Source: an uncultured Acidobacteriota bacterium (lineage in GTDB: Bacteria; Acidobacteriota; Thermoanaerobaculia; Multivoradales; SZUA-115). From it: 64,000 nucleotides of DNA. Both the position numbers and the translations under genes were made by a program. Of this stretch, positions 39,481-41,350 are shown in pieces (the stretch's first letter is position 1; each line of letters opens with the position of its first letter). The notes under the pieces are model-generated. The model was not told where the DNA came from, made no database searches, and saw nothing but the letters and a program-made list of their open reading frames with translations. The stretch is taken from contig CAWDVR010000002.1 in NCBI GenBank assembly GCA_963805975.1, forward strand, positions 1-64,000, in the 5' to 3' direction.

Positions 39481-40275
39481 TCACTCGTTGAGGCGCTGGA
39501 TGAGCGAGAGGATGGGAATGCTGCGCTGCGCGGGCGAGGTCCGGCTCGGCGTCGTGAGGGCCGACAGCGTGCCGCCCCAGGACTCCGCGGGCGCCTGGGC
39601 TTCCGGCGCCATCTCGCGCAGCGGTCCGGCCGCGAGCCACCACAGGCCCGCGGAGGGCTGCGCCGTGGGCGAGAGCGCGCTATCGGTCCCCAGGCTCTCG
39701 ACCTCCGTCCAGCCGCTGCCGTCGCGCCGTCCCTCGGCCCAGGCGGTGACGCCCGCGTCGCCCACGCGCGCCGGCTCGCCGCGCCGCAGGGACCAGCGGC
39801 GCGCCAGCGGCCGCACGGCGACGCCCCGTAGCTCGCGCACCCGGAACCGTGCCGCGACCGGCTGGTCGAACTCGCGTTTCTCGTTGCCGAAACGCAGCAG
39901 GAGGCGGGCATCGTCGGAGGGCGTCCCCGGCAGGCGGACGCTGACGCGGCGGCTCTCGACGGTCAGGTGCGGGGTCAACCGCACCGGAAAGGTGCGCCCC
40001 CCGTCGAGCGACCAGAAAGCCTCCCACTCTTCCACCTCTTCTAGCTCCTCGAGACCCGGACCCGGTACCCACTCGAGCCACACCAGCTCACCCGCACCCA
40101 GCTCGGCGCCGTCGAGCGGCGCCACGAGCCGGGCCAGGGGTTGGGCCCGCGGCCGCTCCTCCCGCTCCTCGGTCTCGGCAGCGATCGCGGGTGCCCCGGC
40201 AGCGGGCGCCGCGACCGCGAGCAGCAAGGTAAGGACCCCAGTCAGGCCCTGAATGAGAAGGCGGCGCCAGATCAT
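39481..40275 (-). CDS. Secreted hypothetical protein, translationally coupled to the borosin methyltransferase
   Basis: ATG overlaps the methyltransferase stop (ATGA); signal peptide; EWEAFWSLDGGRTFP; ends IQRLNE. Confidence 0.7.
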   Translation of the reverse strand: MIWRRLLIQGLTGVLTLLLAVAAPAAGAPAIAAETEEREERPRAQPLARLVAPLDGAELGAGELVWLEWVPGPGLEELEEVEEWEAFWSLDGGRTFPVRLTPHLTVESRRVSVRLPGTPSDDARLLLRFGNEKREFDQPVAARFRVRELRGVAVRPLARRWSLRRGEPARVGDAGVTAWAEGRRDGSGWTEVESLGTDSALSPTAQPSAGLWWLAAGPLREMAPEAQAPAESWGGTLSALTTPSRTSPAQRSIPILSLIQRLNE

Positions 40276-41075
40276 CGAGCCTGATTCTCCTCCACAGTGG
40301 TCTCTCCTCCCAGCCGCGCCAGCACCTCGGCATCCACGGGCGTGACTCCGAGCGGCGGCACGCAGAGGGTGGTGCGGACCGTGGCCGGAGCTCCGCCGAG
40401 CTCGGTGACCGGGAGGTGCAGCACACGGGGTCCGCAGACTGGATACGCGCTCGCCTCGTAAAGGGTTACCCGGTGGCGGGGCGGGTAGTGCCGGAGGAGC
40501 TCCTCGGAGAGCACTTCGAGGCCGCGGCGGTTCCACAGCTCGCCCTTGCGGAAGTCGCGCACGCCGATCACTCCCACCTGCCAGAGGACCAGCAGGCTGG
40601 CCGGGTCGAAGCGCCGCCGGCGGATCAGGAAGTCGGTGGCCTCGAAGGACTGGCAGCCGAGCGCGCCGGGGTCGAGGCCGAGGTCGGCGAACAGGCAGTC
40701 CTCGGCGGAGATGCCGGGGAGCATCCGCGCCTCGTAGCCCTCGGCACGCGCTTGGCGGATCGCTTCGTGCGGCGGCGTGGCGAAGACCCCCGGGTGCCCG
40801 TAGAACGCGGCGCACACCCAGCGGCCGTCGCGCACCGGCGCCAGGATGCGCTCGGCCATCTCGATATAGGTCTCGCCGCGGTCGCGGCCGGGGTGGTAGC
40901 TCGAGTGCAGGGACTCGGCGGTGGGGTTTTTTTCCTCGAGCCAGCGGCTGGTCACGTTGTCGTTCACCAGGTAGAAGAGCCGGTCCGCTCTCTCGATGGC
41001 GGACAGCGCCTCGCGGGTCACCTGGCCGGCCAGAGAGAAGCCCGTGCCCACCACTGTGAGCGAACCATTCGCCAT
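40272..41075 (-). CDS. Borosin-type peptide backbone alpha-N-methyltransferase (OphMA/SonM family)
   Basis: GSLTVVGTG, Y-x5-R-x3-Y (YHPGRDRGETY), FYGHPGVF, PGISAEDCLFADLGLDP, GCQSFEAT and LWQVG motifs; RBS GAGGAG. Confidence 0.9.
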   Translation of the reverse strand: MANGSLTVVGTGFSLAGQVTREALSAIERADRLFYLVNDNVTSRWLEEKNPTAESLHSSYHPGRDRGETYIEMAERILAPVRDGRWVCAAFYGHPGVFATPPHEAIRQARAEGYEARMLPGISAEDCLFADLGLDPGALGCQSFEATDFLIRRRRFDPASLLVLWQVGVIGVRDFRKGELWNRRGLEVLSEELLRHYPPRHRVTLYEASAYPVCGPRVLHLPVTELGGAPATVRTTLCVPPLGVTPVDAEVLARLGGETTVEENQAR

Positions 41076-41134
41076 CGCTTAAATTCTCCTCGCGTGGTAC
41101 TCTAACGCCTTCCCATTCGATGAAGGGGGGTACG

Positions 41135-41350
41135 ATGGCCCTGCAGGACCTGCAGAAGTTCCTTTTGGACCTTTCTGAGCAGCCCGGTTTGCGGACGCAG
41201 TTCAAGGAGTCCCCCGACGAGATCATGACTGCCGCAGGCCTCACGGAGGAGGAGCAGGCGCTCGTCCGCTCGGGCGACGAGAAGGCGATCCGTAGCTACC
41301 TCGGCGACGAGGGCGAGACCTGCAGCGCGATCAAGACGACGTTTTGCTAG
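41135..41350 (+). CDS. Split-borosin precursor peptide (SonA-like borosin-binding domain + C-terminal core)
   Basis: LQKFLLDL...FKESPDEIMTAAGLTEEEQALVRSGD helical-bundle pattern plus tail [12 protein letters not shown]-rich RBS; 59 bp from the methyltransferase start. Confidence 0.85.
   Translation: MALQDLQKFLLDLSEQPGLRTQFKESPDEIMTAAGLTEEEQALVRSGDEKAIRSYLGDEGETCSAIKTTFC

Follow-up and report, generated by a model that had tools for sequence, protein, structure and literature searches.

A split borosin pair beside a predicted receptor kinase in an acidobacterial genome: a candidate peptide-signal cassette

Introduction

Are bacterial borosins signals? The question is raised by a locus in an uncultured Acidobacteriota bacterium, where a stand-alone borosin methyltransferase and its small precursor peptide adjoin the gene of a Ser/Thr kinase with a predicted sensor region. 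The stretch of DNA analyzed, called the window throughout, comprises the first 64,000 nucleotides of contig CAWDVR010000002.1 (assembly GCA_963805975.1; our contig C2), and belongs to a 5.36 Mb, 96%-complete genome whose nearest named relatives are metagenome-assembled genomes (MAGs) of Thermoanaerobaculia (Acidobacteriota). A published survey counts 2,699 borosin methyltransferases (10.1101/2024.01.09.574750, excerpts), and type IV is the commonest class, making up 78.8% of an earlier set (10.1101/2021.12.24.474128). The latter work poses the function of split borosins as a question, and for the bacterial borosin cluster that has been studied best, the native role "remains elusive" (PMC10549244, excerpts). 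We report that the locus is a three-gene system, and we propose, at about an even chance by our own estimate, that the methylated tail peptide of the precursor is the signal for the adjoining receptor kinase.

Results

The methyltransferase and its precursor

The enzyme (267 residues; 40272..41075, minus strand) was assigned as a stand-alone borosin alpha-N-methyltransferase from its matches in the PDB and its aligned catalytic residues. It carries Y60-x5-R66-x3-Y70, FYGHPGVF (residues 91-98), PGISAEDC (120-127) and LWQVG (164-168), the four motifs that an earlier note, made from the letters of the window, had quoted as a borosin signature. All 25 PDB sequences matched at E<=0.001 are borosin methyltransferases, limited to SonM (best, E 6.5e-57), dbOphM, OphMA and MroMA, which bears out that reading. 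Residues Y60, R66, Y70, Y92, F98, E145, W165 and Q166 align with SonM Y58, R67, Y71, Y93, F99, E146, W166 and Q167, which together with SonM E173 are treated as active-site or lock residues (PMC8429565, excerpts). The "top-lock" partner E173, which is not class-defining, is the sole replaced residue among those mapped (V172 here), and the dbOphM alignment likewise shows no Glu in this column. Residues 4-256 align with SonM, with no fused binding domain or core. The enzyme is single-copy, and our searches of the genome found neither a second enzyme nor a second precursor.

The enzyme scores above the PF00590 cut-off (E 1.7e-19), while its top tetrapyrrole-type match in NCBIfam (YabN) reaches 37.8 bits against a cut-off of 525. 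The only other PF00590 protein of the genome gives a BLAST score of 20.8 bits to the enzyme, compared to about 195 HMMER bits for SonM. By these profile, PDB and BLAST scores, the enzyme is placed in the SonM/OphMA-type borosin branch of PF00590 and not among the tetrapyrrole, YabN or RsmI methylases; the grouping with true tetrapyrrole methylases that the note had named as its possible refutation did not appear in these scores. Among 185 related methyltransferase domains, 20 carry Gly in place of the catalytic Arg, indicating that catalytically degenerate copies exist in the family. Some relatives have other architectures. Tandem methyltransferase domains occur in L011, L016, L018, L036 (where they are fused), L045, L055 and L082, and a genome of the same genus holds a second borosin type in which the binding domain is fused C-terminally to the methyltransferase (L108; G001:C107). 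Five genomes from one family in another class carry three borosin methyltransferases each, at least partly clustered (L223-L241, family f34).

The precursor (71 residues; 41135..41350, plus strand) lies head-to-head with the enzyme gene, with 59 bp between them. SonA was matched by the precursor sequence alone at E 5.5e-05 and by its family profile at E 6.1e-08. Its AlphaFold model (mean predicted local distance difference test, pLDDT, 71.5) shows helices at residues 3-15, 17-25, 27-33, 38-46 and 49-58 followed by a low-confidence tail, in line with a five-helix binding domain (residues 3-58) and with the short-tailed helical open reading frame (ORF) described by the note. The start at 41135 is preceded by a purine-rich Shine-Dalgarno (SD) sequence at 41122-41129 and agrees with the starts of 27 aligned relatives; an alternative in-frame ATG at 41120 would give 76 residues. 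The precursor scores 24.8 bits with LigA (PF07746), slightly below the 25.3 cut-off, and is alone in scoring high when the genome is searched with the binding-domain profile.

The core peptide is predicted as D58-C71 (14 residues; 41306..41347, plus strand), from the alignment of G57|D58 with the G55|D56 core boundary of SonA, where cleavage releases shewanellamide A (PMC10549244, excerpts). Tails are 12-14 residues long among 28 aligned precursors. Because the column of I66 is Ile or Val in 25 of these tails and the family profile places it on SonA I65, I66 is the best-predicted methylation site, with S64 or T68 as a possible second one. The choice of sites by SonM depends on neighboring residues (PMC11751858, excerpts), and since the residues that steer it differ here, the methylation pattern is a guess. 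The tail of the window's precursor holds one Ser and three Thr; 8 of the 28 tails have neither. In other loci, the same binding domain bears long basic tails of 6-7-residue repeats (IK-type or IR-type), which look like multi-core precursors (L021:8282-8830, L033, L060, L006:4634-4891, L013, L009 and L024).

Following the published class scheme (10.1101/2021.12.24.474128; 10.1101/2024.01.09.574750, excerpts), the pair is supported as a type IV split borosin by every sequence test run; on its own it is an ordinary, further example of a published and common class. SonM/SonA of Shewanella oneidensis MR-1 (PDB 7LTC/7LTE; shewanellamide A; PMC8429565 and PMC10549244, excerpts) has a stand-alone enzyme that equals ours in size and catalytic residues and, as here, a cluster without protease and with an adjacent signaling gene. 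Our precursor shares with SonA its length of 71 residues, the five helices of the binding domain, the Gly-Asp boundary and a tail that is short and hydrophobic. In contrast to SonM/SonA, the window's genes are head-to-head, the enzyme does not keep E173, and the tail ends about five residues past the predicted site, without the C-terminal GNGD element. The GGDEF protein and cation efflux pump of the son-type cluster are absent from the flanks, which hold the kinase, a secreted protein without family match and a TonB receptor. SamM1/SamA1/SamP of Shewanella amazonensis (10.1101/2024.01.09.574750, excerpts) is likewise a type IV pair with a binding-domain precursor, but no aspartic peptidase recurs in window-type loci, and an acidic C-terminal extension is lacking. 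A search for shewasin-type aspartic peptidases gave no match, and its control was silent as well.

A kinase gene adjoins the pair

The locus holds three genes, methyltransferase (minus), precursor (plus) and kinase (minus), with the kinase end running into the precursor stop. The note's assignment as a split borosin pair stands, but its description left out this conserved kinase gene; the locus is a three-gene system including a dedicated kinase, beyond a two-gene pathway. The kinase gene (41331..43784, minus strand; 817 residues from a likely GTG start) converges on the precursor gene and overlaps its stop by 20 bp. By matches to Pkinase and tetratricopeptide repeat (TPR) families, it encodes a Hanks-type Ser/Thr kinase domain with intact kinase motifs, a predicted transmembrane (TM) helix, a TolB_N-like alpha/beta part and a TPR part. 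The TM helix is predicted at residues 317-335 (42780..42836, minus strand), with a marginal mean hydropathy of 1.59 and basic residues on both sides. Among the 36 scorable kinases of the 39 linked to borosin loci (the other 3 are truncated), 32 have a hydropathy window of at least 1.5.

The sensor region (TolB_N-like plus TPR; 41334..42716, minus strand) is a candidate peptide receptor and was modeled by AlphaFold with a pLDDT of 93.9. Its nearest fold is the periplasmic domain of CadC (PDB 3LY7; Z 19.9, root-mean-square deviation, rmsd, 4.5, 293 aligned residues), which shares the alpha/beta plus helical arrangement. Many TPR proteins follow, including the TPR superhelices of the RRNPP receptors Rap in complex with peptide (8RTE; Z 17.4, rmsd 4.5, 288 aligned) and NprR-NprX (4GPK; Z 13.9). 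Identities to CadC and the RRNPP receptors are 8-13%, and scores of 15-18 are reached by many unrelated TPR proteins; the fold thus names no ligand, though in the model it resembles a periplasmic sensor and peptide-binding TPRs. The ESM Atlas returned generic TolB-like/TPR clusters only, and a complex prediction of the sensor (455 residues) with precursor residues 42-71 scored 0.03 against a mark of 0.32, a result that speaks neither for nor against binding. The genome has 34 kinase-domain matches, yet one sensor of this kind.

We then compared borosin loci across genomes, using 78 GTDB loci (from the best 80 of 216 relatives) and 80 metagenome loci (the best of 413, overlapping the GTDB set in part). 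The genes are head-to-head in 26 of the 78 GTDB loci, all from Acidobacteriota, and the kinase sensor adjoins the precursor in 25 of them; in the 26th (L013), the last residues of the sensor were read by eye at the contig edge. In the metagenome set, 21 of 80 loci are divergent, and the kinase is present in 14 of the 15 divergent loci with room for it. It also occurs in 6 of 13 same-strand acidobacterial GTDB loci. A median of 24 nt separates the stops of precursor and kinase, with a distance of no more than 50 nt in 43 of 46 cases, and U-runs are nearly absent.

TolB-TPR matches occur in 55 of 61 related genomes, and because such kinases are common in this order, the test was also run in reverse. 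Of the 60 best matches to the sensor, those ranked 1-9 (the window's own being rank 1) all have a borosin enzyme within 1 kb, as do 11 of the top 14, compared to none of ranks 15-60. In a quick, midpoint-drawn sensor tree, from which loci of the 61-relative enzyme search were left out as short-flanked or repeated, a branch with a Shimodaira-Hasegawa-like approximate likelihood ratio test (SH-aLRT) value of 99 has 38 of the 39 linked sensors on one side. Five "unlinked" sensors share that side, 3 of which are in borosin loci at a greater distance, and the linked/unlinked label changes 6 times on the tree compared to 18 in shuffles. The enzyme is present in 20 of 61 relatives and in 12 of 301 genomes across the phylum (each count including the window's genome), a patchy distribution.

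Sensor, precursor and enzyme vary together

Tandem arrays of the cassette, running kinase, precursor, enzyme, kinase and so on, are present in several genomes. Two kinases could be scored in each of 7 loci; in 5 of these, identity is 89-99% between the kinase domains and 38-49% between the TPR parts. The two TPRs of L021 are 38% identical to each other; one is 78% identical to that of L149, which has nearly the same tail, and the second is 72-74% identical to those of the repeat-tail group in other genomes. Over 24 cassettes and with no correction for kinship, the identity of the tails is correlated with that of the TPRs (Spearman 0.44; partial 0.38 given the kinase) and of the enzymes (0.36), and less with that of the kinase domains (0.24; partial 0.09). 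The 33 columns specific to a tail group all map to the TPR part; helices 3/5/7/9/11 hold 13 of them and helices 4/6/8/10/12 hold 6, a weak and kinship-confounded bias.

Because TPR and enzyme both group by peptide type, sensor, precursor and enzyme travel together as one block, behind a kinase domain that is shared. This block pattern fits one receptor per peptide and also plain linkage: peptide, modifying enzyme and sensor co-vary while the signaling domain is conserved, and co-evolution is inseparable here from linkage.

Promoters in the divergent spacer

The note had assumed separate promoters for the two divergent genes. An extended -10 element TGGTACTCT (plus strand, 41095-41103) overlaps a minus-strand TAGAGT (41104-41099), forming a candidate bidirectional -10 (41095..41104) in which positions 2 and 6 of the opposed hexamers pair. 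On account of this overlap and pairing, a single asymmetric bidirectional element is more likely than two promoters. Bidirectional promoters of such geometry start 18 bp apart (10.1101/2020.01.31.928960, excerpts). Of 45 spacers, 26 have the extended -10 TGnTAnnnT at 40-51 nt upstream of the precursor start, compared to a mean of 1.4 and a maximum of 4 in shuffles; none has it on the enzyme strand. Genome-wide, the motif clusters 20-60 nt before SD-ATG sites. A -10-like hexamer faces the enzyme in 27 of 45 spacers (shuffles: mean 17.7, max 26). With this asymmetry, the precursor excess that the note had suggested is plausible.

The -10 calls in the window are consensus matches, including an extended -10-like motif TGCTAGAGT upstream of the kinase start (43802..43810, minus strand), and a stock sigma-70 scan of the window returned no promoter. 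The one terminator-like match, inside the precursor gene, is at chance level (1 found, 0.7 in shuffles). A noncontiguous operon, with the kinase transcript reading through the antisense precursor into the enzyme, is possible; it was not adopted because a -10-like hexamer also faces the enzyme.

Two further features were seen in related loci. TAGACT or TAGAGT stands about 7-10 nt before the SD-less GTG start of many linked kinases (read by eye; e.g. L006:2186, L008:5871, L012:3204), which suggests leaderless transcripts for these genes. The inverted-repeat-like site TGTGA-N6-TCAC(A/T), which we take to resemble an operator of the CRP/FNR family, lies just downstream of the extended -10 in the spacers of L007, L010, L145, L008, L012, L017, L048 and L055, and is not evident in the spacer of the window.

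Signaling genes near other borosin enzymes

We scanned 41 chosen neighbors from 25 loci, mostly more distant. TPR transducers were found near distant borosin enzymes, as kinase-AAA-TPR (L049), kinase-TPR-LuxR (L056, L183), BTAD (L064, L071) and cyclase-TPR (L066) proteins. In L029, L037, L054 and L063, the enzyme and precursor genes are separated by stand-alone TPR genes, and three of these loci have a kinase following the precursor. Others among the scanned neighbors are unrelated housekeeping genes. These TPR transducers, together with the GGDEF domains reported in 56% of split-borosin clusters (10.1101/2021.12.24.474128), suggest that borosins are generally tied to signaling. The cyanobacterial loci L029-L080 follow a layout of their own (enzyme, TPR genes, precursor with a Pro/Asp-rich tail, then kinase, or kinase-AAA in L037), which by its gene order is a separate conserved borosin-kinase cassette.

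Discussion

By analogy with SonM/SonA, the helical domain of the precursor would very probably dock on the enzyme, followed by S-adenosylmethionine-dependent methylation at I66 and perhaps at a residue two positions away. A general protease may then cut near G57|D58. The methylated 14-mer would reach the TPR groove, probably in the periplasm, and switch the cytoplasmic kinase; this is the weakest step, which we put at slightly under an even chance.

Two known arrangements share features with this cassette. Type X borosins, which are TPR-TM-GGDEF-methyltransferase fusions (10.1101/2021.12.24.474128), also tie the enzyme to a membrane transducer with a predicted periplasmic TPR, but in the window the parts are unfused and the output is a Hanks-type kinase. 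The staphylococcal agr system, hypervariable across agrB, agrD and agrC (PMC10482373, excerpts), also has an enzyme, a peptide and a receptor sensor that vary jointly while the signaling domain is conserved. The likeness to agr lies in layout only: there is no homology, the modification here is backbone methylation, the kinase is of another class and the ligand-receptor pairing is putative. Peptides of agr are thiolactones.

Several observations weigh against the peptide as signal for the kinase. The precursor has no signal peptide, and its tail carries Gly where 23 of 28 tails carry Tyr or Phe. No recurring protease or exporter was found in 40 acidobacterial loci, nor a C39 exporter in the 96%-complete genome by a search confined to that family, whose control matched 7 of 14. 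The hydrophobic helix is missing in 4 of the 36 scorable linked kinases (L015, L044, L055, L082), so sensing need not be periplasmic. The linkage has exceptions: the enzyme stands without this kinase in 7 of the 13 acidobacterial loci whose genes share a strand and in each of the 39 other GTDB loci, the divergent metagenome locus L142 has the enzyme without a kinase, and the sensors of L121 and L122 in the linked clade have no enzyme within 1.5 kb. The shared output domain is less clear in the tandem loci L042 and L059, with 66% kinase-domain identity. Finally, the enzyme groups as the TPR does (58% identity between the L021 paralogues, 78-79% between cross-genome pairs with the same tail), and since the DNA of TPR, precursor and enzyme is contiguous, inheritance as a block accounts for the pattern with no need for binding.

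This last point is the core of an alternative that is unlikely but deserves serious weight, in which the locus is an ordinary type IV borosin, the kinase is an upstream regulator sensing something else, and the TPR follows the peptide by block inheritance between recombining kinase domains. The enzyme's grouping with TPR and tail, the kinship-uncorrected tail correlations and the export machinery not found in the 40 acidobacterial loci all suit it, as does the best fold match, CadC being a stress sensor rather than a peptide receptor. A shared regulator would not need a separate kinase in each tandem cassette, differing in its TPR and almost identical in its output domain; the 33 of 33 tail-group-specific columns in the TPR part, 13 against 6 by helix set, also speak against it, if weakly and with the kinship confounding noted above. 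The missing signal peptide, the absence of an exporter from the loci (and of C39 from the genome) and the linked kinases without TM helix could be accommodated by an intracellular switch, where the intact, unexported precursor binds the cytoplasmic kinase or is phosphorylated by it and methylation tunes the interaction or adds to a phosphorylated peptide of the RiPP type (made by ribosomes and modified after translation). Soluble kinase-AAA-TPR or BTAD-TPR neighbors at many distant borosin loci and the Ser and three Thr of the window's tail fit such a switch; the helix of 32 of 36 linked kinases would place the variable TPR outside the cytoplasm, and 8 of 28 tails offer neither Ser nor Thr, and we consider it rather improbable.

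Fungal borosins are nematicidal or cytotoxic (10.1101/2021.12.24.474128), and allelic cassettes suit toxin-immunity logic as well as pheromone logic, which would allow the methylated peptide to act as an antagonist, with the kinase as its cognate sensor for self-protection or surveillance. No recurring macrocyclase, further tailoring enzyme or efflux gene was found in the 40 acidobacterial loci, and an intact kinase would be a signaling output rather than a typical immunity protein; this reading is very unlikely. Least credible of all is that the enzyme is a non-borosin protein of the tetrapyrrole-methylase family or an inactive copy. Its passing of the PF00590 cut-off, Val172 at the E173 position and the Gly-for-Arg replacement in 20 of 185 related domains would allow it; against this, the tested catalytic residues are all kept, dbOphM also lacks the Glu, and the scores for tetrapyrrole-type families (37.8 bits against 525) and the other PF00590 protein (20.8 bits against about 195 for SonM) are low.

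A wider reading may be entertained, somewhat short of an even chance: bacterial borosins would be peptide signals read by TPR-domain receptors, and Thermoanaerobaculia would carry an allelic, tandemly duplicated pheromone cassette (methylase, precursor and TPR sensor) with a shared Ser/Thr kinase output. The GGDEF, cyclase, BTAD and kinase-AAA-TPR neighbors elsewhere would, with the same tentativeness, be other outputs of one common logic.

The kinase-coupled allelic cassette is a variant of a known borosin class and is apparently undescribed: our searches, judged mostly from listings, did not find it in the borosin or Thermoanaerobaculia RiPP literature (excerpts of PMC11395268 and PMC13083261 included), where the supplements and Pfam table of the surveys may list kinases or these loci. 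In this cassette, the candidate receptor could be read out simply, by autophosphorylation, and cognate and non-cognate pairs occur naturally within one genome, which makes the question of whether bacterial borosins are signals directly testable with purified parts. Its short-tail substrates also add to those for peptide N-methylation engineering.

Other features of the window

A gene at 39481-40275 (minus strand), starting in an ATGA overlap with the enzyme stop, encodes a 264-residue protein that begins like a signal peptide and matches no Pfam or NCBIfam family, and is followed by a TonB-dependent receptor gene (37181-39439). The secreted protein and receptor are paired only in L005 and same-genus loci. 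These two genes and a pyrroloquinoline quinone (PQQ) propeller were considered as parts of the system and rejected, as they recur in those loci only among the ones compared. Several secreted proteins within 31122-36639 (31122-34430, 34514-35284 and 35944-36639) share a similar C-terminal motif, (V/L)F-x-D-(G/S)FE-(S/T)G-(D/N), possibly a sorting signal. Further along the window, an ORF at 47702-51190 was recognized by eye as resembling the error-prone DNA polymerase III alpha subunit (DnaE2).

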